IMG/VR virus record: IMGVR_UViG_3300023218_000040
Location: 1-64,000 of that record
Strand: one strand, 5' to 3'
DNA: 64,000 nt
Origin: a virus
Taxonomy: Duplodnaviria > Caudoviricetes
This document shows positions 25,696-59,877 of this stretch, piece by piece. The position numbers were made by a program, and so were the translations under genes. Position 1 is the stretch's first letter; every line of letters starts with the position of its first letter. The notes beneath the pieces were generated by a model. That model saw only the letters and a list, made by a program, of their open reading frames with translations. It was not told the origin of the DNA and did no database searches.

Positions 25696-27132
25696 ATGAA
25701 GAAGAAAACTACTGAACAATTCATCGAAGAAGCTATTGCCATGCATGGTGACAAATATTCTTATGACAAATCTATTTATCGTGGGGCGCATGCTCTTATT
25801 ACCATAACCTGTCCATTGCACGGAGATTTTGAGCAACGGGCACGGCATCATTTAGACGGAAAACAATGTTCATCGTGTACCGGGAATAGAAAATTAACTA
25901 CGGAGGAATTTGTCAACCGGGCTAGAAAATTACATGATGGCTATGATTACTCCAAAGTAAAGTATGAGAATAGTAATAAAAAGGTTATTATTAGGTGTAA
26001 AATTCATGGAAATTTTAGGCAATTTCCGTATCATCATTTGAATGGAAACGGCTGTCCCAAATGTCATCATGTGAGATTGAAGTTTATACAGACAAATTCT
26101 CATTCGGATTTCGTATCCAAAGCTAACGATGTCCATGGTAATACATATCAATATATCCCCCATGATGACTTCAATGGTTCTTCAAAAACAACCATACAAT
26201 GTAACAAGCATGGGGTATTCCATCAGTTGGCAACAAATCATCTTAGAGGTTCGGGATGCCCTGCTTGTGCCAATAAAATATCACAACCACAAATAGACAT
26301 AGCTAATCAGATAAGATCATTAGGACTAACCTGTTTTGAAAATCATCGTGAAATAATTCCTCCTTATGAACTGGATATCTATGTTCCAGAATTATTCACA
26401 GCCATAGAATATTGTGGATTGAGATGGCATTCTGAAACCTTTGGTAAAAAGACCAGAAATTACCATATAAACAAGCTGAAGCTTTGTGGAGAAGCAGGAG
26501 TTCGCTTGATCACTATTTTCGAAGATGAATGGATCAACAAAACCGAGATCGTGAAACGGAGACTTAATCATATTCTGACTAATACCAATAACAAGATTTA
26601 TGCTAGGAAATGTCAAATCAGAGAAATTACCAAGGAAGTTGCCAAGCAATTTCTTGATATCCATCATCTACAAGGATATTCAGGATGCAAATACCGGTAT
26701 GGGTTATATCACGGCGGTGAATTGGTATCGGTCATGACTTTCTCTAAGCCTAACATTTCCAAAGGTTCCAGAGGAAATAGTGAAGGTATATATGAAATCA
26801 ACCGTTTTGCGTCTTCCATTATAGTTGTTGGTGGCGCATCCAAACTACTTAATCATTTCGCAACTAACTTACGACCCAACAAGGTTATTTCATATTGCGA
26901 TTTGCGTTGGTCTACCGGTAATCTGTATCACAAGATGGGCATGTCACTAGTCAGAACTTCAGCACCTAATTATTGGTATATCGATAAACAGTTTCGTATC
27001 CATAGATTTGCGTTACGAAAGGGTAATATCCCGACTGATGATCCCAAACTGACAGAATGGGAAAACAGAAAACTGCAAGGATATGACAGGATTTGGGATT
27101 GCGGAAATCTGGTATTTGAAAAGCAGTATTAA
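25696..27132 (+). CDS. Free-standing endonuclease: 3 Zn-ribbon (C..HG.F) repeats + Vsr-like nuclease + GNAT-like C-terminal domain
   Basis: ELDIYVP...AIEYCGLRWH...ITIFEDEW, then VGGASKLL...ISYCDLRWS.G.LY...RIWDCG. Confidence 0.85.
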   Translation: MKKKTTEQFIEEAIAMHGDKYSYDKSIYRGAHALITITCPLHGDFEQRARHHLDGKQCSSCTGNRKLTTEEFVNRARKLHDGYDYSKVKYENSNKKVIIRCKIHGNFRQFPYHHLNGNGCPKCHHVRLKFIQTNSHSDFVSKANDVHGNTYQYIPHDDFNGSSKTTIQCNKHGVFHQLATNHLRGSGCPACANKISQPQIDIANQIRSLGLTCFENHREIIPPYELDIYVPELFTAIEYCGLRWHSETFGKKTRNYHINKLKLCGEAGVRLITIFEDEWINKTEIVKRRLNHILTNTNNKIYARKCQIREITKEVAKQFLDIHHLQGYSGCKYRYGLYHGGELVSVMTFSKPNISKGSRGNSEGIYEINRFASSIIVVGGASKLLNHFATNLRPNKVISYCDLRWSTGNLYHKMGMSLVRTSAPNYWYIDKQFRIHRFALRKGNIPTDDPKLTEWENRKLQGYDRIWDCGNLVFEKQY

Positions 27133-27701
27133 GTACGAACTTTGCCATAGGTAACATATGGCATTGCATGTTCAATCTTCAACGAAGGAATGTTTTCCTC
27201 GCTTGTCCCCTTGATGTAACCAATTAAAACCTGCATCACCACATAGTGGGTGCAAACCATCACATTCTTTCCTTCGTTCACCAATGGAAATATGTACTCC
27301 TTTGCATACGGAACCGCACGCTCCTCAACGTCTTTCATGGATTCACCCATGGGCGGTGCTTCAAAGTAATCCCGTTGCCATAGCTTGTATTTCTTGGGTG
27401 GGAGTATCTTACGCATTTCAGAGTACTTCATGCCCTCCAAAACGCCTCCAGAACGCTCCCTAAGCTCTTCCACGAGCACCCAGGACTCTGGTGGATACTC
27501 ATCCCCTAGAACGATTCTGAGCGTATCCTGGCAGCGCTCAAGGTCAGATGAAAATATAGCGTCCCACTTATATCCACGGTACGTTTCACGGACATCAAGA
27601 CTCTGCTCCTTCCCAAGCTTAGAAAGGGGCGTATTCAATTGTCCCGATTTACGGTTCTCTGTATTGGCGACCGATTCACCGTGACGAAGTAATACTAGCA
27701 T
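27129..27701 (-). CDS. Histidine phosphatase (phosphoglycerate mutase family)
   Basis: LRHGES, SSDLERC..T, ELRER, GES, VCTH. Confidence 0.9.
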   Translation of the reverse strand: MLVLLRHGESVANTENRKSGQLNTPLSKLGKEQSLDVRETYRGYKWDAIFSSDLERCQDTLRIVLGDEYPPESWVLVEELRERSGGVLEGMKYSEMRKILPPKKYKLWQRDYFEAPPMGESMKDVEERAVPYAKEYIFPLVNEGKNVMVCTHYVVMQVLIGYIKGTSEENIPSLKIEHAMPYVTYGKVRT

Positions 27702-28228
27702 CAGTGCAACACATTGAATGATATGGATTTTGTTCCTGGATCACGATTCTCCCAGAAGTTATTAGCTGACTCTAGAAAGTTATCGTTCACCTGAACACTG
27801 TCCTCCATCATCTCCATGATTCGGTCAAGTCGAACTCGTAACTCGCTAGAATGAACGTAGCGTTCTACGAACTCATCATATGGAATGATCTCACCGTAAT
27901 TGTGATGATAGCCGTCGTGGTCTGCCTGTGGCTCGTAGCTGGTCATCATCACACCACGATACTGACTCACGTCATTCGCAGCATAACCCATCGACGGGTC
28001 AGAAGGCTTGTCGCTGACCACTAACTCACTAAAGAATTCGATGACGAAATGCTTGGATTTGGATTCAGCCTGGATGAAGCACTTCTTCCCAATGCCCCTA
28101 TTATGCGGAATCGAATGGACTGGCTTGATACCAGCCATCGTATCGACTAGCTCCTTGAGGCTGATTGGAAGTTCGTTGCGATTCTTTGGATCGCCTTTTG
28201 CTATCTGATGCATTCCGGGCTTAGCCAT
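27701..28228 (-). CDS. Hypothetical protein
   Basis: Start MAKPGM at 28228 with a GGAGG SD. The longer ORF-track start overlaps the upstream gene. Confidence 0.7.
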   Translation of the reverse strand: MAKPGMHQIAKGDPKNRNELPISLKELVDTMAGIKPVHSIPHNRGIGKKCFIQAESKSKHFVIEFFSELVVSDKPSDPSMGYAANDVSQYRGVMMTSYEPQADHDGYHHNYGEIIPYDEFVERYVHSSELRVRLDRIMEMMEDSVQVNDNFLESANNFWENRDPGTKSISFNVLH

Positions 28229-28271
28229 GATCGTTTCCTCCATAGAGTATATACTGCCCTCGGTAGCATTT

Positions 28272-30221
28272 TCAAGCCCCAATACCGGCTCTTCGAAGAA
28301 TCTCCTCAAAGTCAATGTCAAAACTTTCTTCAAGAACTTTTGTAACGTCATTTTTCTTAGATTCTCGCATCGTAATCCACTGTGCGAAGTGGTATGCAAC
28401 AGTATCTATCATGTTTTCTAGTTCGATATCATGGATGCCCTCTTCAATCTGTTCAGCAAGAGGGTCTTTCTGGTCCAATTCAGTAAGATCCGAGTGACTT
28501 CTATTTTCAGACAGATAATCATAGTCCATTCTAAAACCATCAGCGTTCCATTCAAGATACTCAAAGTAGTACTCATCGGAATTATCGTGATCACCTTCAA
28601 TACCAGCAGCAATTATATCTAAGATTCCGTCAAGTTTAATGACGGTGCCCCACTCACCTTGCCAGTTGTTATCTTCTTTTGGACCAGTATAAAAACTATG
28701 TGGGCGCATTGGATATCCAACATTAGCATATTCTTCAATTCTCTCTATCACTTTTTTACGAAGCTCCTTAACAGTCTTTTCAGTAAGATCCGTAGTGTCC
28801 TCGATGGCGTCATGAATTGAGTTAAACAGGTAATGGTAAAAGCGATTCGAGTTGCCTTCACGCATGATAATTGAAGCGGCATTCTGCAATGCATCATATC
28901 GATCAATGCTTCCGCTGTAGTCCTGGTCGGTTCCACGAATGACGGCTTCCTGCTGTTCCGGCGGTAACTTCTCCAAGATCTCTAATACTATCTCCGGGGT
29001 AATTTGTTTCTCGAAACTTTCTTCGCCAAAAGTCATATCATTAATATCGTCCAGAGCACTATACAGACTCTCAACCGGTTTGTCGTCAAATTCTCTGGCA
29101 ACGTCGTGGAAATCTTCCCATTCGTCCACCCAAACATTCCACCATTTCCAGTTGCTATTATCACGCTCTACGTCGAATGTTTGATATAACAAGCCATGTT
29201 CTCGCACTAAATCTTCGATGGCGGCAATACCACGGTCATAGTCACCCATGTTCATCAGTTTTTCTACTACAGCGGTTGGACCCTCTAGTCCTGGTTTCTC
29301 AGCGATCAATTCATCCTTAACTTCATCATCAAGGTCTGAAATATTGAAGTTGTTCTCGGACATGTAGCCGCCACCCTTGATTCCCACTACTGCTTCGTGT
29401 TGAAGCAAGGGGATAATGTACTTGTGATATCGTTTTGCTGGCTTATCGTTTCCTCGACCCTTCATTTCACCAAGCATTCCGTTATCGTCCAAGATGAACG
29501 TCAACACCGGAGTTAGGGTTACATCATCTCCAACTTGTTGCTTTCTACGTAGACTTAGAATTGTATCAGTGGAATGCTTTCGTGGGGAGTTTCCGCAGTG
29601 TCCCATGGCTTTAGCTTCTGCCGGGCAATACGATTTATTCAAGTCATACCAAGCATAGCCATCACCAAAATCAATGATTAAATCAGCAGCATCATCATGC
29701 GGAACTGTTCGTTCTTGGTCTTCACGCCAATCGGATTCAAGCTGATTGAAAGTGTCGTAGACTTCGGATGGGGTCTGCCAAGCGAATGTATACTGCTGAA
29801 TACCAGAAATGGGCATGCTCAAGAAGTGAACAAGAAATCGCTTAACATTTCCATCCATAAACATGGACAGTGAACTCTTGATGTTTCCAACGGTAGTTCC
29901 AGACTTAGCAGCAACCTGTTTAATCTTCTTCTCTACCATCTGACCAAACGTCGAGTCCGACTTAGATAGCTGCTCTAGTAATGAAATCTGAAGATAGCGT
30001 AGATACCAAATAACACGATCTTCACGTTCTAATGCTTCCCTGGCCCATTCAATTTCCTTGGCTACTTGATTCTTGAGTTGCGGAGCTATTTCGAGAATGC
30101 CCTGGAACATAGGCATGAGACGCTTAGGAGATGGCGGTGCTTCGTCCAAGCGTACTTCCTCTGCCTCAAGCAAAGGTAGTCCAGCTAATCGGAGTATGTC
30201 GTTGACTTCAGCTTCATACAT
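28272..30221 (-). CDS. Acidic 649-aa late protein, probable internal head protein with a PcfJ-like central domain
   Basis: ILRLAGL at the N-terminus and EILRRAGI at the C-terminus; central E.KAMGHCG...ILSLR...P.LT...EMKGRGNDKP. TATAAATA lies 5 nt before the ATG. Confidence 0.7.
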   Translation of the reverse strand: MYEAEVNDILRLAGLPLLEAEEVRLDEAPPSPKRLMPMFQGILEIAPQLKNQVAKEIEWAREALEREDRVIWYLRYLQISLLEQLSKSDSTFGQMVEKKIKQVAAKSGTTVGNIKSSLSMFMDGNVKRFLVHFLSMPISGIQQYTFAWQTPSEVYDTFNQLESDWREDQERTVPHDDAADLIIDFGDGYAWYDLNKSYCPAEAKAMGHCGNSPRKHSTDTILSLRRKQQVGDDVTLTPVLTFILDDNGMLGEMKGRGNDKPAKRYHKYIIPLLQHEAVVGIKGGGYMSENNFNISDLDDEVKDELIAEKPGLEGPTAVVEKLMNMGDYDRGIAAIEDLVREHGLLYQTFDVERDNSNWKWWNVWVDEWEDFHDVAREFDDKPVESLYSALDDINDMTFGEESFEKQITPEIVLEILEKLPPEQQEAVIRGTDQDYSGSIDRYDALQNAASIIMREGNSNRFYHYLFNSIHDAIEDTTDLTEKTVKELRKKVIERIEEYANVGYPMRPHSFYTGPKEDNNWQGEWGTVIKLDGILDIIAAGIEGDHDNSDEYYFEYLEWNADGFRMDYDYLSENRSHSDLTELDQKDPLAEQIEEGIHDIELENMIDTVAYHFAQWITMRESKKNDVTKVLEESFDIDFEEILRRAGIGA

Positions 30222-30229
30222 ATTGGTAT

Positions 30230-31816
30230 TTATAAGTTTCTGACGAACTTCAGATTACCACAATCCCATATACGGTCGAGTCCCTGAGCCTGCCTATTCT
30301 CCCATTCGGTTAGTCTATGATCATCACCCGGTACGATTCCCTTTCGAAATGTAAATCGATGAATTCTTGTCGCACCACTTACATACCAGTAATTGGGTGG
30401 TGTTGCACCAACCAATTCGAAACCTAGTGTTTCGTATAAGTGACCATTGGACCATCTCCTATCTGCGAACGATACTATAGTTTGAGGGTTTTGGTCAGTA
30501 ATGAATTTATGCAATAAACGGCTTGCACCACCAACTACCAACGAACCATCAGTGCAATATCTAGCCATTTCCCAATACGTTTGATTACGTCCTCCTTTGG
30601 CTATAGATGGATGAGAAAACGTCATAACACTTTTCAAAACGTGTTCATCAAAAAGTCCCAACTTTATCGATGATTTGGTGTATCCCTGCAAGTGGTGAGT
30701 TTCACAAAACGATTTGGCATCAGTAGTTGAAATTTCTTGAATATTCAACTTTCGAGCGTATGAACGATTCTGGCATTTATTTAATAGAACAGCAATTCTA
30801 TTCATTACCACATATTTTCGTTCATACCATTCATCTTCAAAGATTGTAATTAAGCGATATCCTTTCTCTTCGCACAATCGCATCTTAGTAAGGTGATAGT
30901 CACGCCCCTTACCCTGTCCTTCTCCGTGCCAATACAATCCGCAATATTCAATAGCCAATTTATAATCAGGCACTACTATATCTAGTTCGAGTGGGAAAAT
31001 AACCCGTCGATCTCCAAGATATGCAGTAACGCCAATAGAACGTATATGATCTATGATTTCTATTTCTGCTTTACTATGTTTGATAATCCTGGGATGACAT
31101 TGTGGACACATATCGGCACGGAATTTTGATTCTGTAAAACATTGCCTAGTGCGTACGAAATGGTAACCACAAGTCTTACAACATACTTCAAGTCGCCAAT
31201 CATCAATGAAACGTAAAACATCTAAATTAGCCAGTGTCGCATATTTCTTATACTCTTTTTGATGTTCGATTCTTTTCAGAGTCCATGACGTTTTACTTCT
31301 TCTGCTAATCAACTCCTTAGATCTGTTGCTGTGCTGTTTACCTCTGAAAAAAGCAAGATCATCACCACGCTGTCGCCGGGTTTCCAACCCTTGCTTAGTC
31401 CTTTCCGTGGCCATTTCGGTGCCTCTGGCTTTCGAAGATGCATCAGCTATTAGCTTTTTAGTCTTTTCGGTGTGGTGGCGTCCCCACATTGGATGATTTG
31501 TAGAATCGGCATAACGCAATTTAGCCTTACTACGAAGTTTTTCTTTCTGTTCCTCACTACACGGAATACCCCTATTGTGTCCAGGTTTACCGGTTTTGGC
31601 TGCACTTATTCTCTCACCCTTCCGTTTCCTGGAACACTCTGGACAATCCTGGCGAAAATGATCATGAGGCTTCTTCCAATACTCAATATCATGGATCTTG
31701 CAACGTATCGACAATTTGGTCTTCGAATCATGGTATACCGTAGTAGCATAATCATACTTGCCACATTCACCGCTGTGCCACGTCTGATGTTGCCTAATGA
31801 AATCTCCCCTATCCAT
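30230..31816 (-). CDS. Free-standing endonuclease: Zn ribbon + NUMOD3-like repeats + Vsr-like nuclease + GNAT-like domain
   Basis: HPMWGRHHTEKTK and FFRGKQHS repeats; LELDIVVP..KLAIEYCGLYWH; VGGASRLL; IVSFADRRWS; RIWDCG. Confidence 0.85.
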   Translation of the reverse strand: MDRGDFIRQHQTWHSGECGKYDYATTVYHDSKTKLSIRCKIHDIEYWKKPHDHFRQDCPECSRKRKGERISAAKTGKPGHNRGIPCSEEQKEKLRSKAKLRYADSTNHPMWGRHHTEKTKKLIADASSKARGTEMATERTKQGLETRRQRGDDLAFFRGKQHSNRSKELISRRSKTSWTLKRIEHQKEYKKYATLANLDVLRFIDDWRLEVCCKTCGYHFVRTRQCFTESKFRADMCPQCHPRIIKHSKAEIEIIDHIRSIGVTAYLGDRRVIFPLELDIVVPDYKLAIEYCGLYWHGEGQGKGRDYHLTKMRLCEEKGYRLITIFEDEWYERKYVVMNRIAVLLNKCQNRSYARKLNIQEISTTDAKSFCETHHLQGYTKSSIKLGLFDEHVLKSVMTFSHPSIAKGGRNQTYWEMARYCTDGSLVVGGASRLLHKFITDQNPQTIVSFADRRWSNGHLYETLGFELVGATPPNYWYVSGATRIHRFTFRKGIVPGDDHRLTEWENRQAQGLDRIWDCGNLKFVRNL

Positions 31817-31862
31817 AATAGAGTTTCCTGTATTTATAGCAATATCTACAGAAATTAGGCAC

Positions 31863-31897
31863 TAAGTGATGAGATATCAAGGATATCTCATCACTTA
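31863..31897. repeat. Perfect 16-bp inverted repeat downstream of the tail sheath gene
   Basis: TAAGTGATGAGATATC-aag-GATATCTCATCACTTA. Confidence 0.9.
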
Positions 31898-31907
31898 TAA
31901 GTTCTAG

Positions 31908-34277
31908 TTAGAACGGAAAGTCGTCGCCAGTTCCAAGTACCGTAATAGGTACAAAGATGAATTCGATTGCACGTGCTGGCTTGATAGCTACGTCAACAAA
32001 TAACTCGTTGCGGTCGATAACTTCCGGTGGATTATTGCTTTCATCGACTCGCACGGCGAAGTCAAACAAAGCACGTAGGGACTTCAGACCAGCAAGGTAA
32101 CGCTCGGTTACAATCTGAGCCGAACGACGAGTCACCGCATCATTGATTTCGAACAGGAACGGCTCCAACAGACGCTGTAGGTCGTACTTCATCTTGGCGA
32201 TGAGTCGTGCCACGTTGATGCGGTCAAGTGCGGATGCGAATCCCTGGTTCGTCTTCTGACCAAACACAACCAGACCACGAGTTGGCATGAATGCGATTGG
32301 GTTGATGCGGTTATCATATAGTACATCACGCTGAGATTTGGTTAGAACCAGCGGAGTGTATTCACCATCGTTGTTAATGTGACCAACCGAAGAAGCATTG
32401 TCAACACGACCACGGCGGAAGCCGGCTGGTGGGAACCAAGGTGCAGCTACCGAGTCAGAGAATGCGATTGTACGTAATGCAATATGAGATGGTGGCTGTA
32501 CAACATCCTCTCCGTCAAGGTTGGTAGCCAATGCCCATGGGTACCAGAAACCGGCAAATGCCGATGGTCCAGAAGCAAAGCCACGCTCACCAGTCGCCAC
32601 AACATTGTTGGCGTTGGTAATCCACTCGGCTGCCGTAATCTCACGACCCTCTGGAATACCATTCGGAATCATGAACTTCGGCGTATCAGCAACCACGAAT
32701 GCAGTTTCGTTGTTGTCAGCGTTCAAAGCAATCATCTCATCGTATAGTTCAGGGTATCCTGGGCATGCGATAAGCTGGAAGAAATTAACCTCGGCACGAA
32801 TCTCCTGGTTTGCAACGAACTGAGCTTGTAGTGCCTCTACCACAACGTCACGCTGTGCCAAACGACCGAACTTATCCCCTGCGGCTGGCTCCCAGAAGTT
32901 CCCAGTTTGAGGAACAACCACAAAGCTACCTGCCTGCTCTACAACTGTTACAGCATCAAAGTCTGGGTTAAAGACCTTGACAGTGTTGCGAGTGCGAGAC
33001 TCGCCAGTGTTGCACCAGTACGTACCGTTCAATACGGCAGAAGCTACCGGATCATCAGGCTGGAACAGGACTGCATCACGAATGTTAACCCAGGCACCAC
33101 CAGTACGACGCATGATCTGTGGGTAGTTGTCACGTGCCTCTGGGGTTGACAGATCAACCCAGATTGCGCCCTCAGCAGGAAATACTGGAGCAGATGCAGA
33201 AATGACCTTCTGACGATTGGTTGGGTTTGATACCGTGGTGGTCTCGATTGGTACCCACTGGTTACCAAAGCCAACATCGGTTCCTTCCAAATACAAAGCG
33301 AAGTCAGTGAACGTGTCATCGAACCAGTATGTTCCAGTGTCTGGTTCAGAAACAGGAGCCTCAGACTGAATGAATACTGGTAGAGGAATGAACGTGGTGC
33401 CCGTTCCGACAAACAGTGGGCGTGCACCAGTAGTGTTTACATTCGAGATGTCTTCCCAGATGGTGTTCTCATTTGGAACAGGCATCATGGTGTCACGGAT
33501 GATCGTCTGGCTAACAAACACGCCATCCGCTGCACGAAAGCGACGTAGTTTCAGGTTTACACCACCAGCAGAAGAAGTTGTCTTCCACCAGTAGTCACCA
33601 TCGGCAACGCTACCACCGGTAGGAGTAGTGGGAGATACGTGCAGGTTCGTTCCTGCGCCAAAGTCAGTTGCTAGGTTGGCGTCCGTAGCCTCCTTCCAAG
33701 AACCAGCAAACTTGTAAACGATCTTACCATCAGAATTGGAGTAGTCAAATCCCCAATCTCCGTTAGAACCATCTGCACCGGTTGGTGGAGTGGTGAACAC
33801 CAAGAAATCATTGGTGTCAGTGATTGGATTGAATACACCACCGCTGCGAACAAAGATACCACCAACAACCTCATCGGAATCAATCCAATAGGTGTTGTCA
33901 GGTGGCGGAAGAACTGGCTCAACCTCAGATGGAACCAATTGTTCCAGCGGAAGATTAACACGTAGTATAAATGCACGGCTACCACGACCCAGGAAGCTGT
34001 GAGCGGCCAACAGAGCGTATTCGTTGGTCTCGTCTCCTGGAACTGGTTCACCAGCGCTCTCAACAAACACCGGGTTGCCGTAGTTTAGCAACAATTCACG
34101 CTGCGATGTAACCAAACGTAGCTTGCCAGACTCAACCGTTCCCGGTGCTGTAGCTGCTCCGTCCGAAGAAATCTTGTTCGACCTCGTGGCGATTATGAAT
34201 AGCGGAATCGTTTGCGGGTTAGGTTCGGCGTAGATACTGGCGTCTGTAACGCTAACCGTAACTGATGGTGAAGTCAT
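31908..34277 (-). CDS. gp18: Contractile tail sheath protein (gp18-like)
   Basis: SP.V.V...D.S.Y, YG.P.F, ACPGYP, PWFPPAG.RRG, LY..RINPI, ALDRINVARL, FE.ND..TR, DVAIKP.RAIEFI. Confidence 0.96.
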   Translation of the reverse strand: MTSPSVTVSVTDASIYAEPNPQTIPLFIIATRSNKISSDGAATAPGTVESGKLRLVTSQRELLLNYGNPVFVESAGEPVPGDETNEYALLAAHSFLGRGSRAFILRVNLPLEQLVPSEVEPVLPPPDNTYWIDSDEVVGGIFVRSGGVFNPITDTNDFLVFTTPPTGADGSNGDWGFDYSNSDGKIVYKFAGSWKEATDANLATDFGAGTNLHVSPTTPTGGSVADGDYWWKTTSSAGGVNLKLRRFRAADGVFVSQTIIRDTMMPVPNENTIWEDISNVNTTGARPLFVGTGTTFIPLPVFIQSEAPVSEPDTGTYWFDDTFTDFALYLEGTDVGFGNQWVPIETTTVSNPTNRQKVISASAPVFPAEGAIWVDLSTPEARDNYPQIMRRTGGAWVNIRDAVLFQPDDPVASAVLNGTYWCNTGESRTRNTVKVFNPDFDAVTVVEQAGSFVVVPQTGNFWEPAAGDKFGRLAQRDVVVEALQAQFVANQEIRAEVNFFQLIACPGYPELYDEMIALNADNNETAFVVADTPKFMIPNGIPEGREITAAEWITNANNVVATGERGFASGPSAFAGFWYPWALATNLDGEDVVQPPSHIALRTIAFSDSVAAPWFPPAGFRRGRVDNASSVGHINNDGEYTPLVLTKSQRDVLYDNRINPIAFMPTRGLVVFGQKTNQGFASALDRINVARLIAKMKYDLQRLLEPFLFEINDAVTRRSAQIVTERYLAGLKSLRALFDFAVRVDESNNPPEVIDRNELFVDVAIKPARAIEFIFVPITVLGTGDDFPF

Positions 34278-34390
34278 TTTCTGTATTCCTCTCAATAGGA
34301 GATTTCGTGCTATTCATATTTATCAAGACGCTGACTTTTGAGGACTCGAACCTCATATAAGAACTTTGTTCCTGGTGTACATATATATCT

Positions 34391-35110
34391 ATGGGACGAA
34401 AAGTAACTACAGAGATTTTTATTAAGGAATCCCGGAATCTTCATGATGGAAAGTACACCTATGAGAAGACAGTGTTTGTCTCTTCACGAGACAACGTGAC
34501 GATCACATGTCCAATTCATGGGGATTTTCAACAACGGGCGTCTTCACACGCACAAGGAAACGGCTGTAAGAAATGTCAAGATGACAGCCGTCGAATGACT
34601 ACTGAAACTTTCATAAAGAAAGCTCGTCAGATTCACGGTAATCGTTTTGATTATTCTAAAGCTGACTATAAGGGTTCACATAAACGTGTAACCATAATTT
34701 GTCTCCTTCACGGCGAATTCACTCCATTGGCCTACCTCCACCTTCAAAAGAAAGGTTGCAGTATTTGCAAATATCTGAATCACCCAGGTGGCTATACGTA
34801 TGAATTGTTCGACCGTGATGAAGAGTTAGCGAGATCCATTGGGGTGTTCTATATTGTAGAATACCAATTCGATGATGAAACTTTCATCAAGATAGGAATT
34901 ACTCAGCACGACGCTTACGTGAGGCATAAAAGCTATTGGAAAAACGTCGAGGTTTTGTTAGAAAGGCCGATGAGACTGAAAGAAGCTTTCCATTATGAAC
35001 AAGTATTGCTTCATAGAAAAGATTTGCAACCCTACCGGTATACTCCAAAAAATCTAATGGCTGGAGTAACCGATTGTTTCACCGTTGATGTGAAACCACT
35101 TTTGTTCTAA
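34391..35110 (+). CDS. Putative homing endonuclease: 2 Zn-ribbon repeats + GIY-YIG/T5orf172-like C-terminus
   Basis: ITCPIHGDF and IICLLHGEF; FYIVEY...IKIGIT...R. Confidence 0.75.
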   Translation: MGRKVTTEIFIKESRNLHDGKYTYEKTVFVSSRDNVTITCPIHGDFQQRASSHAQGNGCKKCQDDSRRMTTETFIKKARQIHGNRFDYSKADYKGSHKRVTIICLLHGEFTPLAYLHLQKKGCSICKYLNHPGGYTYELFDRDEELARSIGVFYIVEYQFDDETFIKIGITQHDAYVRHKSYWKNVEVLLERPMRLKEAFHYEQVLLHRKDLQPYRYTPKNLMAGVTDCFTVDVKPLLF

Positions 35111-35116
35111 CGAGTC

Positions 35117-35617
35117 TTACTCCAGGTCTATCTGCTTAACATCCTCAAGTTTGTCTTTTCTGACCAATAGAAGTAGCACTACACGTCCATACATTGGGAA
35201 ATCGTCCTCCATTCTTCCGTACGGCACGTACCCTACATTATCCAGGTCGTTCTTTCTGCGACTCAGTAACCTAGTGTAGATTCTTTCTCGGTGTGGCTTT
35301 GCACCCAATAACAATATCTGCGGCTTCTTTTTCGTCAGATAATCTCCGATGATGTCCATGATTGTGGAGAATACTAGGAACTCGTTGCCACTGCCGATTT
35401 CGTATTCTTCCCACTGTCCATCAATTTCCGCAGCGAAACCCATCATGTGAGTATCAAACCCAGGTATGATTGGAATCTGACGGCCTAGACCTACAACGTA
35501 TCGGATGTCTCCAATATGAAATTCGGCAGCGTACTGGAACATTCCAGGGAATGGATTGTTATGAACCGATAGCCACTCCCAAGCTGCTGTGCGGTTGAAT
35601 AATTCCAGTAGTGTCAT
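35117..35617 (-). CDS. Hypothetical protein, possibly virion-internal
   Basis: 166 aa, coupled downstream of gp15; MTLLELF start; G.GNEFLVFSTI..II motif. Confidence 0.7.
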   Translation of the reverse strand: MTLLELFNRTAAWEWLSVHNNPFPGMFQYAAEFHIGDIRYVVGLGRQIPIIPGFDTHMMGFAAEIDGQWEEYEIGSGNEFLVFSTIMDIIGDYLTKKKPQILLLGAKPHRERIYTRLLSRRKNDLDNVGYVPYGRMEDDFPMYGRVVLLLLVRKDKLEDVKQIDLE

Positions 35618-35622
35618 GTCCT

Positions 35623-36467
35623 TTATCCAAACGTCTGAAATCGTAGAACATCATCCTCATCAGCCTTGATGACACACCGAAAGATTTCATCCAGATCATC
35701 AAACTCGATGACATCTGTAACCTCGGGATCGCCACTGTTCAAATCCAAAATAGGAACCTGAATCTTGAAGATATGCTTGGTCTCCAAAACCTTGGCTGGG
35801 GCCGATAGCCACAACGTAGTAGTGAATGGCAAAGTGATGACGTTCAGCGGATCAATGTCTACACCAGAAGGAACAGCCGCTTCAAAACGTACATCCAAAT
35901 CAAAGTTCAACGTCGTCAGGAAAGTCCAGTCAGCAATACTATTAGACAAAGCAATGTCCATCTCAGGGTTGAAGACCACACCAATCTGCTCTAGAATCTG
36001 AAAACCCTGGTCCTGGTTTGAACCCCAAATGGATAGCTCGAAGTTTAACTCGTACGGCACTGGTTGATAGCGCTCTACGGTCTTTCGCCTTCCAGGCTGA
36101 TTGATGAGAAGCTTGCCCTCTGGATCACGAGCACGCTCTACAAATTGCAGTTTCTCAATGTGCTGTGGTTGTTGTCGCCATTCGGCTTTCTGTCGCATAC
36201 CGGTCATGATTAGCGACATTATAGGTACGTATGCGACTGTATTCTCACTACCACCTTGAAGAATGTAACCGACTGTTCGGTCCATGCTGCCGTACATGAT
36301 TGGAACATCCAAGAAGTGATGCTTGCCATCACGCTGAACACCAGTACGAACCTGATAGCCAGCAAACATCGCCATGATTTGAACAATCATGCGCTTTATC
36401 TGTGCGTCGTAAAAAAAAAAGGTTTCCGTCTCAATCCCTGAAGACGGCTATTATCAGCATTATTCAT
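35623..36467 (-). CDS. gp15: Tail terminator/sheath stabiliser (gp15-like); start and body separated by a T10 frameshift
   Basis: The body 35623-36390 has VPIMYG, QPVPY.LNFELSIW, QILEQI...FNP and ..TL.F...LWLSAP. The family-type FFYDAQIKR N-terminus is in frame with the body, but the promoter/SD/ATG 36467 is in another frame across A10 at 36411-36420. Confidence 0.85.
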
Positions 36468-36498
36468 TTAAAGCCCTTAAACATTAGCTTAGTATTAG

Positions 36499-36527
36499 TA
36501 TTTAGGGATACATGAATATCCTAAATA
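36499..36527. promoter_or_regulatory. Back-to-back late promoters for gp15 (minus) and the HNH gene (plus)
   Basis: TATTTAGGGATA-catgaa-TATCCTAAATA, an imperfect inverted repeat. Confidence 0.7.
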
Positions 36528-36559
36528 TATTCGTATTGGAATCATAACGAGGATACAAA

Positions 36560-37711
36560 ATGCTATCCAAAGAGCAGGTTATTGAACAGTGTATGTCTTT
36601 CTATAAGAGGACCAACAGACTTCCTCGCCAGAAAGATTTTAGTTGCATAGATGGAGTTAATCAACATGTAGTTGAGAAATATTTTAACTCCATGAAAAGA
36701 TTATACCAAGCGATGGGAGTTGATAAAGATATCAGACGTAGAACCAAACTATCCCTGATTGCCTCGGGTCGAAATTTCAAATCTGGTAATGGTAGGTATC
36801 CGACTAGAAGGGATATAAACAGAGCCAATGGTTTTCGTCATGGAGATAAGACCGTTGTAAAACTCTTTGGTTCTTGGGATGCTTATCTTGATTCTATAGA
36901 GTATGCTGACCACACTAAATTCACCCCGGTTGGCAAGCGCCGTAGGCGTAACATGTCTGAACGAATTTTCTTAGATTGGTTATGCAACCAAAGGTATGAA
37001 AAGAATGGGTGCTGGATTTGGACCAAAAACACTAACTCTGGTGGGTATGGCTTAGTCATATATCAAGGGAAATATCACCTTGTACACCGCCTTTCGTATT
37101 CAATGCTGATTGGAAATATACCAAACGATATGGTGATTCGTCATATCTGTGACAATCCAGCTTGTTACAACCCGGAACATCTGATGATTGGCACCCATTC
37201 AGATAATCGTAAGGACCACACTAAAAGAAATCCCATCAACTCTAGAAAATCCTCCGTCGTCAAAAAACCGGCTGGCATTTGGGGGGACGACTTATATCTC
37301 TGGGCTCTATCTGTTTGCACCGAAAAGGATGGGTGTATGTTGTATCCATCATCCCGAAAATATCCAGTAGTGTTCCATAAAGGGAAAAGCTATCGAATGG
37401 GTAGACTACTGTACAGCATAAATCACTCAATGGAGTATTCAGGAAATTGGATAGCTCGGCACACTTGTCACAATCCCAAGTGTATAAATCCACAACACAT
37501 TGTTAGTGGAACAAGATCTGATAATGCTATTGACAGCAGAGAGAAGTCATCTGTATCACGTATTTCAATGAATATAGCAAGGGAAATTCGAAAGGAATGG
37601 TTGAACTCTTCAACTAAACCAACAACATTCGATAAGCAATGGGCTACGATTTTGGGGGTATCAGTATCAACAATTGCCTCTATCAGACACAATCGAATTT
37701 GGAAAGAATAG
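36560..37711 (+). CDS. Free-standing HNH homing endonuclease with two HNH domains
   Basis: CWIW...GYG...HRLSY...IRHICDNPACYNPEHL..GT..DN..D, a second ARHTCHNPKCINPQH..GT..DN, and N-terminal HTH-like repeats. Confidence 0.88.
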   Translation: MLSKEQVIEQCMSFYKRTNRLPRQKDFSCIDGVNQHVVEKYFNSMKRLYQAMGVDKDIRRRTKLSLIASGRNFKSGNGRYPTRRDINRANGFRHGDKTVVKLFGSWDAYLDSIEYADHTKFTPVGKRRRRNMSERIFLDWLCNQRYEKNGCWIWTKNTNSGGYGLVIYQGKYHLVHRLSYSMLIGNIPNDMVIRHICDNPACYNPEHLMIGTHSDNRKDHTKRNPINSRKSSVVKKPAGIWGDDLYLWALSVCTEKDGCMLYPSSRKYPVVFHKGKSYRMGRLLYSINHSMEYSGNWIARHTCHNPKCINPQHIVSGTRSDNAIDSREKSSVSRISMNIAREIRKEWLNSSTKPTTFDKQWATILGVSVSTIASIRHNRIWKE

Positions 37712-37719
37712 TGTTCCTC

Positions 37720-37911
37720 TCAAGAAGTTGTCTCGGATGAATGTGGATCGACCTTAACCCTAAGTTTCTTCTTGCCACCACGACGTTTGGACTTGATGCT
37801 TTTATACTTAATTGAGTCATCGGGCAATGGATACTCATGCCGTGGCTCAATGTCCGGGTGCAGATAATGACTATTGTCATGACCTTCTCTGTACAAGTCC
37901 CAAATCTTCAT
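37720..37911 (-). CDS. Small hypothetical protein (63 aa)
   Basis: ATGA overlap with the gp14 stop; basic C-terminus. Confidence 0.55.
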   Translation of the reverse strand: MKIWDLYREGHDNSHYLHPDIEPRHEYPLPDDSIKYKSIKSKRRGGKKKLRVKVDPHSSETTS

Positions 37912-39179: not shown

Positions 39180-39313
39180 TGCTCTTTCTATAATTCATAC
39201 TAAAACGGATTTGAGTATTTAGCACGTATTCAATTACTACACTATTGAACTACACCAATATCTGAGTATCTTCATATAAGTATAGAAATCGGAATGGTTA
39301 AAAAAGGTACGGT

Positions 39314-41558: not shown

Positions 41559-41682
41559 TCCAGTTCTCCAGTTTGTTCCAAGTATTTACCAACAGCGGAA
41601 ACACTGACCCTTCAGGACTAAAATACATTTCTCAGGCTTACCTCAGCCATTTACCTTGAAGATTTCTATACGGAGGCATAAG

Positions 41683-41712
41683 TTGACATAGATTTCATGT
41701 AAACCATATATA
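41683..41712 (+). promoter_or_regulatory. Sigma70-type promoter with a long leader
   Basis: TTGACA-18 nt-TATATA; about 115 nt to the ATG at 41830. Confidence 0.6.
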
Positions 41713-41715
41713 AAT

Positions 41716-43975: not shown

Positions 43976-44081
43976 TAGTTATCCGATGGAGTGAATAAGG
44001 TTATGGTTGGAGACCATTATTGTGGTTCCTTGTCTTGTGCTCATGACCTAAATACTTACATGTTCAACGGAGAAAGTCAAG

Positions 44082-44492: not shown

Positions 44493-44883
44493 ATCTCCAT
44501 CCACGTAAGATTTGCTCTCTTCTCCTCTTAGCCCAAGACTTGGACACTACTCTTAGATTTTCTGCTACGTGTAGCCCACACACGTTCCGGCCTCGTAACG
44601 GTATCTCGTGAGCAACCAGCAATGGTATACCCATTTCACGACTTAGTCTCTCACACTCCTTATAAATGCGTTCAATCTCTATTTCATTAGCCCACCGTGG
44701 CGTGGCTCTTTTGATATCACGGTTTCGCTTCCAGTTCAATTGGTAATTGCAATGCTCGTCTGGGTTTTCCTTGCGCCATACAGCTTGTTGAACACGAGAA
44801 CAAGATACGCATTTCCGATTGGACACGTATCGCTGTGTTCCTCCACACTTTTTACATGGCTTTCCAATCTTCAGTTGCATCAC
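44476..44883 (-). CDS. HNH endonuclease-like protein, probably catalytically degenerate
   Basis: CKKC...CVSC; ATPRWA; VAHEIPLRGRNVCGLHVAENL. The usual VDH and terminal EN..K.N residues are altered. Confidence 0.7.
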   Translation of the reverse strand: MMQLKIGKPCKKCGGTQRYVSNRKCVSCSRVQQAVWRKENPDEHCNYQLNWKRNRDIKRATPRWANEIEIERIYKECERLSREMGIPLLVAHEIPLRGRNVCGLHVAENLRVVSKSWAKRRREQILRGWRFSSTR

Positions 44884-44984
44884 TCAATTACCGGCATAGC
44901 TGAGTAGGTACTTAACTAAATACTGGCACATTAAGCAGACATTCAAGTCTGTCAATTTAATTAATTCATTAGGAGACAATAATT

Positions 44985-55611: not shown

Positions 55612-55615
55612 TTTA

Positions 55616-55672
55616 GTATCCTCCTAGTTAGCAAGGTTACATTGTATAAGGCCCCAAAAGGCGACCTCACAC
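55616..55672 (-). ncRNA. ROSE-like RNA thermometer in the hsp20 5' UTR
   Basis: Hairpin 1 GUGUGAGGUC..UUUU..GGCCUUAUAC; hairpin 2 CCUU(G)CU-AACU-AG GAGG pairs UUGCU with the SD and leaves a bulged G. Confidence 0.7.
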
Positions 55673-55713
55673 TATATTTATGTCTCTTGCTCTGGAGAAT
55701 CAAGGTTTTGAAC

Positions 55714-56229
55714 TTACTTGAATACATCTGATATCTTGGAGCCAAATCGAGAGGGAGAAAAAAATCCCATCAGTTTGCGTTGTTTCTCGTCACCACGACC
55801 GCTGGTCACACGAACCTCGAAGCCTATGTATTTGCCGTTCCCGTAACCGTTCTTTTCGAAATGCTGACGCACCGCTTGCTTCATCATCGGTACAGAGGCA
55901 GCTACGATCCCGCTGGGGGTTTTGGCAATGTACAATTGAGCCTTGCCTTTCATGTCCCGACCCTCGATACCTTTATCAATGTCCTTCATGATCTCGAAAA
56001 TGATATCTTTTCCGGTCTCTCGTCCCTTGATCTGAACAGTAAGCTGCTTCTTATTAGTTTTGTTCCTGATGTATGCATCGATCTTGTCGTGCATGTCCGC
56101 ACTCTGCGATGCAGAAACGATCTCGTAGTCCGTTCCTTCGAGCATCTTTGCAACCGCATCGAAGATTTGCTTCTCCAGGGCTTTGCCTCTGGCTACTCGG
56201 TCCTGAAAGCTTCTATCTGCTATTACCAT
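55714..56229 (-). CDS. PD-(D/E)XK-family nuclease-like protein
   Basis: G..LE, DMHDKIDA, VQIK.R; late motif GTAAATA at 56255-56261 and GGAG SD. Confidence 0.65.
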   Translation of the reverse strand: MVIADRSFQDRVARGKALEKQIFDAVAKMLEGTDYEIVSASQSADMHDKIDAYIRNKTNKKQLTVQIKGRETGKDIIFEIMKDIDKGIEGRDMKGKAQLYIAKTPSGIVAASVPMMKQAVRQHFEKNGYGNGKYIGFEVRVTSGRGDEKQRKLMGFFSPSRFGSKISDVFK

Positions 56230-57752
56230 CGGATAGTCTCCATACTGTTGTCTCTATTTACATCCCACTGCAATCGTAATTTTCCACAATCATATATAGA
56301 GTAATATCCTATATCATTCAACATTTGCTCCTTTGTAAGCAAAGAATTTGTTGCTTCACCAGAATCTAACATGCTCCTTTTTGTCTTGAATCTGCGGTGT
56401 TTTCTGTCTACAAAGTTAGTCCAAAATTTCGCTGGAGCAGTAGCACCATCAACTATAAACCCGGATATGGATTTGAAAGAACCAGTAAACCAACGTCGAT
56501 CTACAAACGCTACTACCGATGTATATCCTTTTTCACGTATTGCATGCTTAAACATCTTGGATCCCACACCAGGGTTGTTCTTTCCATTAGTCACAAATCT
56601 CTTCATTTCCACGACATCTTTTCTACCACGTTCATCTGACGGGTAACCAAACACCATTACCGAAATCAATTCATCTCCGTGGTAAGCTCCAATTCGGTAA
56701 TTGCCGGATTGTCCAGCACCAAGCAAATGATGCTTGTTCAAAAATTCTGATGCTGTAGCCCACGAAACCTCAAGAATAGTTGTGTTTCTGGCATACACAC
56801 CTTTGGGTGAACACCCTAAAAAATGTGCTAACGTGCTCTTAACGATTTCTTGCTTGTCTCTCCATTCATCCTCGAAAACTGTTATTAATCTAATACCTTT
56901 TTGTTCGCACAATTCGTGTTTTTTCAAGTGATACCTTTTATCTTTATTACCAAAGAAAGAAGAATGAGTGCGCAATCCACAATATTCTATTCCTAAATTG
57001 ATAGCTGGTATAAGAATATCGATTTCATATGGATTTATGGTATCTCTATCATTCTCTACTACTTCTACATTAAAACTCTTAACAAAATCACAAACTTCTT
57101 TTTCTGCTTTAGATGTTTGTTTTCCTATGGCACATTTTGGACAACCCACACCGGTATACATATGATGACCAGCATATTGCTCAACTTCACCATGTTTGGG
57201 GCAATCGATTTTTACCTTTTCATATTGATTGGTATATTCTACATTCGGATAACTGTATTTTCCATCATGTTTTTTTATGGAACGTTTAATGAATTCCTCA
57301 TTACCAACCCGTCGCTTTTCATTGGCACATTTTGGACATCCAGAACCATTTTTATGTCTAGAAACTTTCTGTTTAAACAATCCGTGATCAGGACATTCTA
57401 TTTCAAGTATATGACGGCTTCCTCTAAAATTTTCAGGCTTTTTGATGGGGTATTTGTACTTTTTTCCATGAATAGCAGTAAACTCTTCAATAAATTTGTT
57501 CCATCCCAGTTGTCTACCAGGACGGGTGAATGTTGTACATACGGGACAAAATATGTTTCGTTGAAGTATTCGATTGAATTTAGTTTTACAAACATTACAA
57601 ACAAATGGATAACTTATCCACTTACCATTCCTATGCTTTCCTTTATACTCTTTCAGTGTAAATTCTAAATGAATATCTGGCAACAGATCATTACTGATTT
57701 TATCATATGATCTCTGTAATTTTGTTGTTGATACTTTTTCCGACATGTTCAT
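56223..57752 (-). CDS. Free-standing endonuclease: Zn ribbons + Vsr-like nuclease + GNAT-like domain (tandem copy A)
   Basis: YEIDILIP...GIEYCGLRTH, FEDEW, NNPGVGSKMF, VAFVDRRWF, IYDCGKLR. Confidence 0.85.
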   Translation of the reverse strand: MNMSEKVSTTKLQRSYDKISNDLLPDIHLEFTLKEYKGKHRNGKWISYPFVCNVCKTKFNRILQRNIFCPVCTTFTRPGRQLGWNKFIEEFTAIHGKKYKYPIKKPENFRGSRHILEIECPDHGLFKQKVSRHKNGSGCPKCANEKRRVGNEEFIKRSIKKHDGKYSYPNVEYTNQYEKVKIDCPKHGEVEQYAGHHMYTGVGCPKCAIGKQTSKAEKEVCDFVKSFNVEVVENDRDTINPYEIDILIPAINLGIEYCGLRTHSSFFGNKDKRYHLKKHELCEQKGIRLITVFEDEWRDKQEIVKSTLAHFLGCSPKGVYARNTTILEVSWATASEFLNKHHLLGAGQSGNYRIGAYHGDELISVMVFGYPSDERGRKDVVEMKRFVTNGKNNPGVGSKMFKHAIREKGYTSVVAFVDRRWFTGSFKSISGFIVDGATAPAKFWTNFVDRKHRRFKTKRSMLDSGEATNSLLTKEQMLNDIGYYSIYDCGKLRLQWDVNRDNSMETIRW

Positions 57753-57826
57753 ATTGATAATGTAACACAACTATAATGACAATCAAGATTTTACACTTGT
57801 TATGTACTTATCAACATTTGAACATA

Positions 57827-57851
57827 AAAGGGGGAGCCCTAGGCTCCCCTT
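57827..57851 (-). terminator. Intrinsic terminator
   Basis: GGGGAGCC-tag-GGCTCCCC followed by CTTTT on the minus strand. Confidence 0.8.
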
Positions 57852-57871
57852 CTACTTAGAATTGGACACTC

Positions 57872-58000
57872 TTATCCAATTAGTGAATTTCCTTTCTTCA
57901 GATTTTCCTGCTTGGTGAGAAGCTGCAAGTTTCCTTCAATATGAAGCCCGCACACACTCTCTCCATGCAATGGAATGATGTGGTCAACGTGATTCTTCAC
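57872..58000 (-). CDS. 42-aa HNH-motif mini-ORF or HNH remnant
   Basis: MKNHVDHIIPLHGESVCGLHIEGNLQLLTKQENLKKGNSLIG; its GTG overlaps the upstream TGA (GTGA). Confidence 0.6.
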   Translation of the reverse strand: MKNHVDHIIPLHGESVCGLHIEGNLQLLTKQENLKKGNSLIG

Positions 58001-59877
58001 GTTGATTCCCAAACCAATCTGAGTTTGCCGCAATCATAAATGGGGTAGTATCCCAGGCTGTTTAACATTTGCTTCTTCGTCATATTTGGGTCAACCCCAT
58101 CCTTCTCTATCATGCTTTTTTTGGTTTTGAATCTACGCTGTTCTCTAGTGGAAAAATCAGTCCAATACTTCGTCGGCTGCGTCTTTCCATCTACTACAAA
58201 ACCAGAAAGCGCTTTGAAAGAACCAGTGAACCACCGTCTATCAACAAAGGCTATCACTTTAGTATACACCTTCTCGTCAACCGCATGCTTGAACATCTTG
58301 GAACCAACACCGGGGTTGTTCCTGCCATTCGTGACGAATCGCTTCATCTCGATGATATCCTCCATCCCACGCTCGTCGGAAGGATAACCAAACACCATGA
58401 CCGCTACTAACTCATCACCATGATACGCCCCGATTCTGTAGTTTCCTGGCTGACCAGCACCAAGAAGATGGTGCTTTTCCAAAAACCCGGAAGCAATCGA
58501 CCACGGAATATCATGTATTCTTGTTTTTCTGGCGAATACACCCTTCGGAGTGCATCCTAGAAAGTGCGACAACGTGCTCTTAACGATTTCTTGCTTGTCC
58601 CTCCACTCGTCCTCAAATATGGTAATCAATCGATATCCAGCATCTTCTGCCTTATCATGCTTCCGCACATGATAGTTGCGGTCCTTTCCTCCCTCACTTG
58701 AATGCCAATACAGACCACAATACTCTATAGCTAACTTCTTCTCTGGAATTACGATGTCGAGTTCGTATGGTGCTATAATACTTCGGTCTCGTTGAATTAC
58801 ATTGCCCTCACCAACCAAAGATGATACGAATTCGTATACCTCGATTTCACCTTTTGAAGTGATGCATGAACATATGGGACACCCTTGTCCTATCCAATGA
58901 TTCTTCGGTATTTGCTCAAAATCTCCATGCTCTTTACACGTTATCGTGACCTTCTTGTCAGCCAAGACATATTGCATCTTGGAGTAGTCATATCGGTCAC
59001 CGTGTGCCAATTTGAATCTCGCTATCACATCTTCTTGTGTGTTTCTGTTTGCATCAGCCATGCATTTAGGACAGCCATGACCTTTTTTGTGTAGTTTTGG
59101 AAGTTGTTCAAAATACCCGTGGTTTTTACACGTTATGGTAACGGGCGTACCATCACTAACGTATTTTGTTTTCGAATAATCATACTTCCCCCCGTGTATT
59201 TTCTTGAAATGTTCTATGACTTCTTCGGTGGTAAAAAGTCTGGTTCCACCACACTTCGGGCACCCGTGCCCACCATATAGATGGCCTCCAGCAAGTTGCT
59301 CAAAGCTTCCGTGAAGTGGGCAAATAATGGTCACCGGTCTGTTTTGGGATACGTAATCCACCAACGAATAATCGTATCGGTCGTTGTGTGCCTCTTTTGA
59401 CCTGGAAATAAAGGTATCGGTATCTAGTGAGCGAATTTCTATCGCACAAGACTTGCATCCACTTTTGAGATGGGAATGTGGTAGTTGTTCCCATACACCG
59501 TGTTTTGGGCACCGAATAGCTATTTTGGTATGTGCGTTCTTGTAGTCCACCAAAGAGTAGTCGTAGAGGTCGCCATGCACTGCTTGCGCCTCTTCAATGA
59601 ATCTTTTTTTGTCCCAAGGTTTGCGTCCACCAACACCCGGTCTCTTTTTACCTTTGGAAGTAGTACCACGTCTATCATTGAAGCATCCGGGGCAACCCGA
59701 AGTATTCAACACATGGTTCTTCGCCGTGGGGAAAAAATCGCCATGGATCTTACAAGTTACACGAATTTTTGACTGAAGATTACGGAATTCGGATAGGTCA
59801 TACTCATACCTATCACCATGAACTTCACAAGCTTTATCTAAAACTAAATCGGATGTCCATCGAATTCTGGATGACAT
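57997..59877 (-). CDS. Free-standing endonuclease: 5 Zn-ribbon repeats + Vsr-like nuclease + GNAT-like domain (tandem copy B)
   Basis: Five C..HG.(F/W) repeats; YELDIVIP.KKLAIEYCGLYWH; C-terminal half highly similar to copy A. Confidence 0.87.
   Translation of the reverse strand: MSSRIRWTSDLVLDKACEVHGDRYEYDLSEFRNLQSKIRVTCKIHGDFFPTAKNHVLNTSGCPGCFNDRRGTTSKGKKRPGVGGRKPWDKKRFIEEAQAVHGDLYDYSLVDYKNAHTKIAIRCPKHGVWEQLPHSHLKSGCKSCAIEIRSLDTDTFISRSKEAHNDRYDYSLVDYVSQNRPVTIICPLHGSFEQLAGGHLYGGHGCPKCGGTRLFTTEEVIEHFKKIHGGKYDYSKTKYVSDGTPVTITCKNHGYFEQLPKLHKKGHGCPKCMADANRNTQEDVIARFKLAHGDRYDYSKMQYVLADKKVTITCKEHGDFEQIPKNHWIGQGCPICSCITSKGEIEVYEFVSSLVGEGNVIQRDRSIIAPYELDIVIPEKKLAIEYCGLYWHSSEGGKDRNYHVRKHDKAEDAGYRLITIFEDEWRDKQEIVKSTLSHFLGCTPKGVFARKTRIHDIPWSIASGFLEKHHLLGAGQPGNYRIGAYHGDELVAVMVFGYPSDERGMEDIIEMKRFVTNGRNNPGVGSKMFKHAVDEKVYTKVIAFVDRRWFTGSFKALSGFVVDGKTQPTKYWTDFSTREQRRFKTKKSMIEKDGVDPNMTKKQMLNSLGYYPIYDCGKLRLVWEST

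Follow-up and report, generated by a model that had tools for sequence, protein, structure and literature searches.

Probable Hef-type homing endonuclease genes carrying a Mom-like domain lie between the virion genes of a Rak2/GAP32-like jumbo phage

We analysed the first 64 kb (hereafter the window) of the 204,014-bp IMG/VR virus record IMGVR_UViG_3300023218_000040 (CheckV completeness 55%) and found that five related genes within it behave as free-standing homing endonuclease genes, because comparison with close relatives of the phage shows each gene either wholly present or wholly missing. They are Hef-type (EDxHD, Vsr-like) genes of the already-described 'Hef-like' family, and each combines a variable N-terminal zinc-ribbon region with a Vsr-like nuclease domain and a C-terminal domain resembling Mom, the DNA-modifying protein of phage Mu. 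The major capsid protein of the record shares 62% identity with its counterpart in Sinorhizobium phage Phosso and 56% with those of GAP32, CBB and related phages, and by this identity the host genome is a Rak2/GAP32-like jumbo myovirus. We are highly confident that the encoded proteins are mobile homing-type nucleases, and the overall explanation that we favour, as the probable one, is that Hef-type homing genes have invaded the spaces that separate this jumbo phage's conserved virion genes. All five genes listed in a first-pass annotation of the window, starting at 25696, 30230, 39314, 56223 and 57997, were confirmed as open reading frames (ORFs) at those coordinates (lengths in amino acids, aa):

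Copy 1 (P0001), 25696-27132, plus strand: ATG at 25696 in an ORF that opens with TTG at 25684, 482 aa from the TTG; nuclease ~26266-26562, Mom-like domain ~26563-27129.
Copy 2 (P0002), 30230-31816, minus strand: 528 aa; nuclease ~30800-31099, Mom-like domain ~30233-30799.
Copy 3 (P0003), 39314-40759, plus strand: 481 aa; nuclease ~39893-40186, Mom-like domain ~40187-40756.
Copy 4 (P0004), 56223-57770, minus strand: up to 515 aa, with possible ATG starts at 57752 or 57746; nuclease ~56832-57131, Mom-like domain ~56226-56831.
Copy 5 (P0005), 57997-59877, minus strand: 626 aa; nuclease ~58573-58872, Mom-like domain ~58000-58572.
Three further paralogues, outside the window: 66283-67785, 112146-113633 and 159474-161378.

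Close relatives were found via the capsid protein and comprise a 103-kb fragment (G001; capsid 94% and sheath 79% identical) and a 376-kb genome that is 93% complete (G002; capsid 84% identical). Profile searches returned zero family members in the 103 kb of G001 and a single member, at an unrelated position, in G002 versus eight in the present record. Where copy 1 stands in the window, the tail tube gene of G002 and its neighbour are 71 bp apart, and copy 2 is likewise absent downstream of the G002 sheath gene together with the adjoining 649-aa ORF. Copy 3 is absent from G001, in which the virion-protein and adaptor genes are separated by a gap of 129 bp, and is absent from G002 too. Between its capsid and Hsp20 genes, G001 has other genes in place of copies 4 and 5, and no copy occupies the position of copy 5 beside the capsid gene in G002, Phosso or GAP32. 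The first-pass annotation held that the genes are positioned as homing endonucleases are, next to tail tube, sheath, neck and capsid genes; neighbour annotation bears this out (the flanking genes encode tail tube, sheath, sheath stabiliser, a virion protein, head-tail adaptor, Hsp20 and major capsid protein), and every one of the five copies lacks a counterpart at the syntenic position in G001, G002 or both. Copies 1 and 3 run on the strand opposite to their neighbours, copy 1 being placed between the tail tube gene and an ORF at 27129-27701 and oriented against both, while copies 4 and 5 are arranged in tandem. A base-level DNA alignment of the copy 3 insertion boundaries with G001 (77% identity) was so broken up by divergence that a target site did not emerge from it. 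In a comparison over 24500-42000 with the contigs of four metagenome runs, all from one study, copies 1-3 were carried in all three phage-holding samples, and no contig without these copies was found in those runs, although contigs drop rare variants and element-free alleles may still occur. A contig joint from 40071 to 26512 was considered as a rearrangement and rejected, as it is merely a 32-nt stretch shared with paralogue P0006. The capsid-Hsp20 interval is itself a variable hotspot of ~4.3 kb, the gene content of which is wholly different between G001 (L009:9225-13566) and the window (55612-59996).

The five proteins share 35-41% pairwise identity across their full length, and the alignment displays variable N-termini and long invariant blocks in the C-terminal 290 residues (E-x-D...P....(A/G)IEYCGL..H, LIT(I/V)FEDEW, AR, H..G, E..R, G..S, D.RW and DCG). 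Every motif quoted at first reading (PGVGSKMF, PGLASKMF, VGGAS(K/R)LL and (S/T/A)(Y/F)xDxRW) was recovered, whereas the description of a five-member family was low, the record holding eight paralogues. The possibility that the five copies are recent duplicates was rejected, since for most paralogue pairs identity inside a given domain is 28-51%, the tandem pair of copies 4 and 5 alone being closer; for the same reason the family within this genome is either old or the product of several separate acquisitions. Between copies 4 and 5 identity falls from 66% in the Mom-like domain and 59% in the nuclease to 21% in the N-terminal array, which suggests a duplication followed by exchange of the DNA-reading array.

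The nuclease domain was assigned by sequence and by fold. A profile of 42 sequences matched PDB entry 3r3p, the catalytic domain of the EDxHD prototype I-Bth0305I, at an E-value (E) of 1.2e-9 across the whole domain, and an AlphaFold2 (AF2) model of the copy 2 nuclease with a mean predicted local distance difference test score (pLDDT) of 90.7 returned 3r3p as its top Foldseek match (E 2.6e-5, template modelling score (TM) 0.70/0.75, root-mean-square deviation 2.9), followed by the Vsr structures 1cw0 and 1vsr. The Vsr-like core noted earlier is therefore real, with I-Bth0305I as its best match on both counts. Residue roles in I-Bth0305I, and its need for dimerisation, have been described (PMC3239194), and our comparison covered the D196, N208, H213 and D222 positions of the EDxHD motif. 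Invariant Asp and His residues of the family align to the catalytic D196 and H213, while the variable x position (N208) is occupied by C, N or D. The E/D/E/H/K positions of the nuclease are 97-100% conserved across 152 homologues, the domain being present in 152 of the 158 sequences examined. A homodimer prediction with two copies of P0003:194-481 (nuclease plus Mom-like domain) scored 0.00 and was informative in neither direction. As in I-Bth0305I, the DNA-binding modules lie N-terminal to the nuclease; unlike the present genes, I-Bth0305I is intron-encoded, carries NUMOD2/helix-turn-helix repeats and is without a Mom-like domain.

A modular DNA-binding region N-terminal to the nuclease, as in other EDxHD/Hef-type enzymes, is present in all five copies and takes the form of arrays of 2 to 5 treble-clef zinc ribbons (C-x-HG...H...C-P-x-C; Pfam DUF723/DUF4379) per copy. 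Copy 1 has three such ribbons at residues 43-65, 105-127 and 173-195, copy 3 also has three, copy 4 has two DUF723 ribbons plus an N-terminal CxxC...CxxC, and copy 5 has five (DUF723 E 3e-15). Copy 2 departs from this pattern with an N-terminal zinc ribbon, a NUMOD3 (28.2 bits against a gathering threshold of 20.4) and a second, different zinc ribbon at 212-240. Of the variable zinc-ribbon/NUMOD3 arrays reported in the first-pass annotation, the zinc ribbons thus hold for every copy and NUMOD3 for the gene at 30230 only. Given its variability, the array is probably the site-reading part of the protein.

Full-length searches placed the proteins in phrog_559 and phrog_3339 ('HNH/homing endonuclease') with E-values from 1e-74 to 1e-122 (copy 1 with phrog_559, E 1e-120), and a profile of the Mom-like domain matched 19,702 clusters at E ≤ 0.001. 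A tblastn search with P0003 identified 1,074 cultured-phage records, many of which match in the zinc-ribbon region only and 116 of which cover ≥ 80% of the protein; a megablast search of 25000-45000 against cultured phage genomes gave zero matches. Genes that match the nuclease and Mom-like part occur in T4-like, ViI-like, Campylobacter, Klebsiella and Xanthomonas phages, and family members from cultured phages bear the annotation homing endonuclease, hypothetical protein or, in one case, 'nuclease/acetyltransferase'. Four free-standing genes of LIMEstone have been termed 'Hef-like' (PMC3296691), and in a phage of the same species as LIMEstone the 'Hef-like' gene located upstream of the baseplate wedge gene proved to belong to the family. 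Hef cleaves nrdB (reviewed in PMC2988022), Hef-type enzymes were assigned to the EDxHD family by Taylor et al. (PMC3239194), and hef replaces mobE between nrdA and nrdB, as the title of Sandegren et al. (2005) has it. In the Tequatrovirus Escherichia phage FL44 (PP400790.1, L020:2640-4274) a 544-aa 'hypothetical' ORF occupies the hef position between nrdA and nrdB and is a nuclease-Mom member with 31% identity to copy 3 over the nuclease and Mom-like domain.

Hef of the T-even phage U5 and the Hef-like proteins of Acj9, 133, LIMEstone (F-LimIII/VII/VIII/X) and Campylobacter phages share with our proteins a nuclease and a Mom-like domain in this order; from gene position only, we infer that U5 Hef carries a Mom-like domain. 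The baseplate-wedge-upstream gene of the LIMEstone species and the FL44 nrdA-nrdB ORF match across both domains. Like the genes described here, Hef-like genes stand alone among conserved neighbours, and a genome often holds several of them, whereas identity to them is only ~30% and the arrays differ, with DUF723/DUF4379 zinc ribbons here, DUF7487 in the LIMEstone-species copy and no Pfam-recognised array in FL44. Fusions of Mom to a restriction endonuclease (REase) were reported from jumbo phages by Iyer, Anantharaman, Krishnan, Burroughs and Aravind (Iyer et al. 2021), who predicted restriction combined with protective momylation (PMC7824862). Their proteins match ours in kind, in the kind of phage and in the functional idea, so that 'cut and protect' in one polypeptide, as also suggested by the first-pass annotation, is already in print as a prediction and is not new. 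They treat the proteins as a restriction-modification-like conflict system, whereas presence and absence here point to selfish homing elements. We found no experimental test of a nuclease-Mom fusion in the literature.

The C-terminal domain was linked to Mom by Pfam, PHROGs, hhalign and fold search. Pfam Mom (PF25680) matches five of five copies, with P0002 at 31.6 bits versus a gathering threshold of 27.1 and the other four below it at 16.6-23.3 bits (copy 1 at 18 bits), and phrog_1384 ('Mom-like DNA modification protein') matches with E-values of 1e-6 to 3e-13. An alignment of 53 sequences compared with Mu Mom by hhalign gave E 1.7e-5 and a probability of 79%. An AF2 model of the domain from copy 2 (pLDDT 92.6, predicted TM (pTM) 0.83) returned Mu Mom (8bv8) first in Foldseek at E 6e-9, the next GCN5-related N-acetyltransferase (GNAT) following ~1000-fold worse at 7e-6, and the VIA comparison with 8bv8 gave Z 13.8 at 20% identity with the longest aligned length, 154 residues. 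The domain thus has a GNAT fold with Mom as its nearest solved structure, as expected of a Mom family member, and the earlier suggestion of a GNAT-type domain recalling Mu Mom is upheld both by this top match and by retention of the Mom catalytic residues. A phmmer search with a single C-terminal domain against PDB sequences gave no matches.

In Mu Mom, residues R111, S124, D149 and R151 are essential and H58, Y59, Y159, W48 and W181 are important, with S124A abolishing activity (PMC13219725, the residue numbering of which is that of the GenBank Mu protein + 10). We determined the conservation of their equivalents in 158 sequences, comprising the 150 best representatives at ≤ 50% mutual identity and the eight paralogues:

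H58 equivalent: His in 99%.
R111 equivalent: Arg in 99%.
S124 equivalent: Ser in 77%, Gly in 16%.
D149 equivalent: Asp in 99%.
R151 equivalent: Arg in 96%.
Y159 equivalent: Tyr in 95%.

The five window copies all retain the R111, S124, D149, R151 and H58 equivalents. At the Y159 position three of them have Tyr or Phe and P0004 and P0005 have Lys, and at the S124 position P0007 has Thr and P0006 has Gly. Since the active-site positions of both domains are conserved, the nuclease and the Mom-like domain both look like working enzymes. A conserved Arg and Lys are found in the beta-6/beta-7 insertion of the Mom-like domain. Two further motifs are specific to the family and have no Mu Mom counterpart, a D-C-G near the C-terminus of the domain (98-100% conserved in the 158 sequences, its Cys being invariant) and an A-R(K) that opens it. 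Mu Mom differs from the present domain in standing alone and not in a fusion.

Mu Mom is a GNAT that modifies adenine N6 in a Gly-tRNA(Gly)-dependent manner, is predicted to flip the adenine and forms a tight dimer (PMC13219725). The acyl-CoA chemistry assumed at first reading, and the acyl-CoA-binding test proposed with it, are outdated, as Mu Mom transfers glycine from Gly-tRNA(Gly) (PMC13219725). The 204-kb record contains 12 tRNAs, among them a tRNA-Gly(UCC) at genome positions 196619-196692, outside the window; that this matches the Mu Mom donor may be coincidence.

Drawing these features together, the array would direct the protein to a long DNA site within or close to the adjacent gene. 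There the nuclease, which like I-Bth0305I probably works as a dimer, would break genomes that are without the gene, and recombinational repair would then copy the gene into the cut genome. In the leading, unproven reading the C-terminal domain, tethered to that site, would actively modify adenine in an aminoacyl-tRNA-dependent manner, the adenine mark on the site of the carrier genome preventing cutting there. We consider it probable, judging from the residues retained, that the Mom-like domain is catalytically active. That its role is self-protection of the target site we propose tentatively; such marking would solve a self-immunity problem, because a free-standing element leaves its own target intact on insertion. 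More specifically, a bulky adduct aimed by the array at one target adenine would amount to epigenetic self-immunity, that is restriction-modification logic within a selfish element, a proposal that we regard as doubtful. Were it true, targets could remain sequence-identical in carrier and victim genomes.

Several observations weigh against this account. The sequence link to Mom is remote, because the family hidden Markov model (HMM) searched against PDB sequences missed the Mom chain at E ≤ 0.1 and gave weak generic GNAT matches only. The Gly found in place of S124 in 16% of the family, including P0006, occurs where the nuclease is still intact, and the FL44 member has Asn at the D149 position; with the S124 equivalent variable and Asp replaced in FL44, Mom-type catalysis, as judged from sequence, cannot be obligatory in every active nuclease. 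The Mu Mom dimer residue W48 is not conserved in the family, and the beta-6/beta-7 insertion, helix-turn-helix-like and essential in Mu Mom, is shorter in the model (~domain residues 148-171). In the nuclease, the last Asp of EDxHD (D222 of I-Bth0305I) aligns to a His that is 95% conserved in the family. A diffusible modifier would, in a mixed infection, also shield the target allele, counter to homing, and cleavage, homing and DNA modification by these proteins are all predictions from sequence and models.

Some of these points would fit a Mom-like domain that is non-catalytic and serves as a DNA-binding, base-flipping or dimerisation module, its pocket merely gripping a flipped adenine. The S124 equivalent is the least conserved of the active-site positions and varies in proteins with an intact nuclease, Asn stands for D149 in the FL44 nrdA-nrdB protein, adenine flipping and a tight dimer are respectively predicted and known for Mu Mom (PMC13219725), and dimerisation is required by I-Bth0305I (PMC3239194). 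However, conservation of H, R, D, R and Y at 95-99% over ~150 clusters of ≤ 50% mutual identity is an enzyme-like pattern, the conserved basic residues of the beta-6/beta-7 insertion also fit binding of a nucleic-acid substrate, and DNA binding is already supplied by the zinc-ribbon arrays. We hold a non-catalytic domain to be unlikely.

A true single-polypeptide restriction-modification system that serves the phage and is not selfish, with broad momylation and degradation of unmodified host or superinfecting DNA, is the prediction published for jumbo-phage Mom-REase fusions (PMC7824862). It would agree with the conserved active sites in both domains, and eight paralogues with differing DNA-reading arrays could cover many sites. 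The family is not, however, the stable component of the lineage repertoire that such a system would be, since none is found in the G001 fragment and one in the 93% complete G002 against eight here, which places it outside the core strategy of the lineage. Every copy sits inserted among the conserved virion genes, on the opposite strand in two cases, the closest relatives of the nuclease are proven homing enzymes, and long modular DNA-binding arrays imply rare, long sites and not frequent restriction sites; we judge this explanation improbable. That the C-terminal domain is a generic acetyl-CoA-dependent GNAT, acetylating a protein or small molecule and unrelated to DNA, seems very improbable, for although many CoA-dependent GNATs match the model with Z ~13 and the family HMM weakly matches glyphosate N-acetyltransferase (E 0.001), Mu Mom leads the Foldseek matches by three orders of magnitude with the longest structural alignment, the Mom-specific D149-x-R151, R111 and H58 are conserved, and in 152/158 sequences the domain forms one protein with a DNA-binding array and a DNA nuclease.

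Returning to the homing genes and their surroundings, each copy looks from its sequence context like its own transcription unit. The sequence TATAAATA, a late promoter box of the T4 type, is found 22 nt ahead of the copy 2 ATG, after a hairpin (31817-31860), and GC-rich hairpins followed by T-runs, of the hairpin-terminator type, precede copy 4 (57771-57900) and copy 5 (59878-59996). Other features of the same region are:

28272-30221, minus strand: 649-aa ORF adjoining copy 2, with no PHROG match and no significant Pfam match.
34391-35110: 239-aa zinc-ribbon endonuclease gene in the same virion module, with the same zinc ribbons as the family and a nuclease of a different kind.
36560-37711, plus strand: HNH homing endonuclease gene (Pfam HNH_3, zf-His_Me_endon and HNH_repeat) between the sheath-stabiliser and virion-protein genes.
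59997-61220: major capsid gene, directly upstream of copy 5.

In the synteny comparison a counterpart of the HNH gene was absent from both G001 and G002. The 649-aa ORF, missing like copy 2 from the syntenic gap of G002, could have travelled as cargo of the endonuclease gene or could be a virion gene specific to the lineage. The 239-aa nuclease gene is missing from a near-identical strain (run X2, a 31.7-kb contig with 20 differences over 24500-34385); the contig jumps from 34385 to 35101 with 76 other letters between, and displays dense substitutions and small deletions at 35132-35262, in the gene adjoining that nuclease gene. At 34385-35262, then, a nuclease gene of another kind seems to have left a recent homing or co-conversion scar.

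The record adds eight diverged members to a very large family, of which at least 19,702 clusters match the Mom-like domain, and shows clean presence and absence of its members between close jumbo-phage relatives. The general question that it raises is the role of a Mom-type, probably tRNA-dependent modifier inside a homing endonuclease, a question that the solution of the chemistry and structure of Mu Mom in 2026 has made testable. If self-protection proves to be the answer, site-directed DNA hypermodification would be a self-immunity device of selfish genes, and the family would be a source of programmable adenine-modifying modules.

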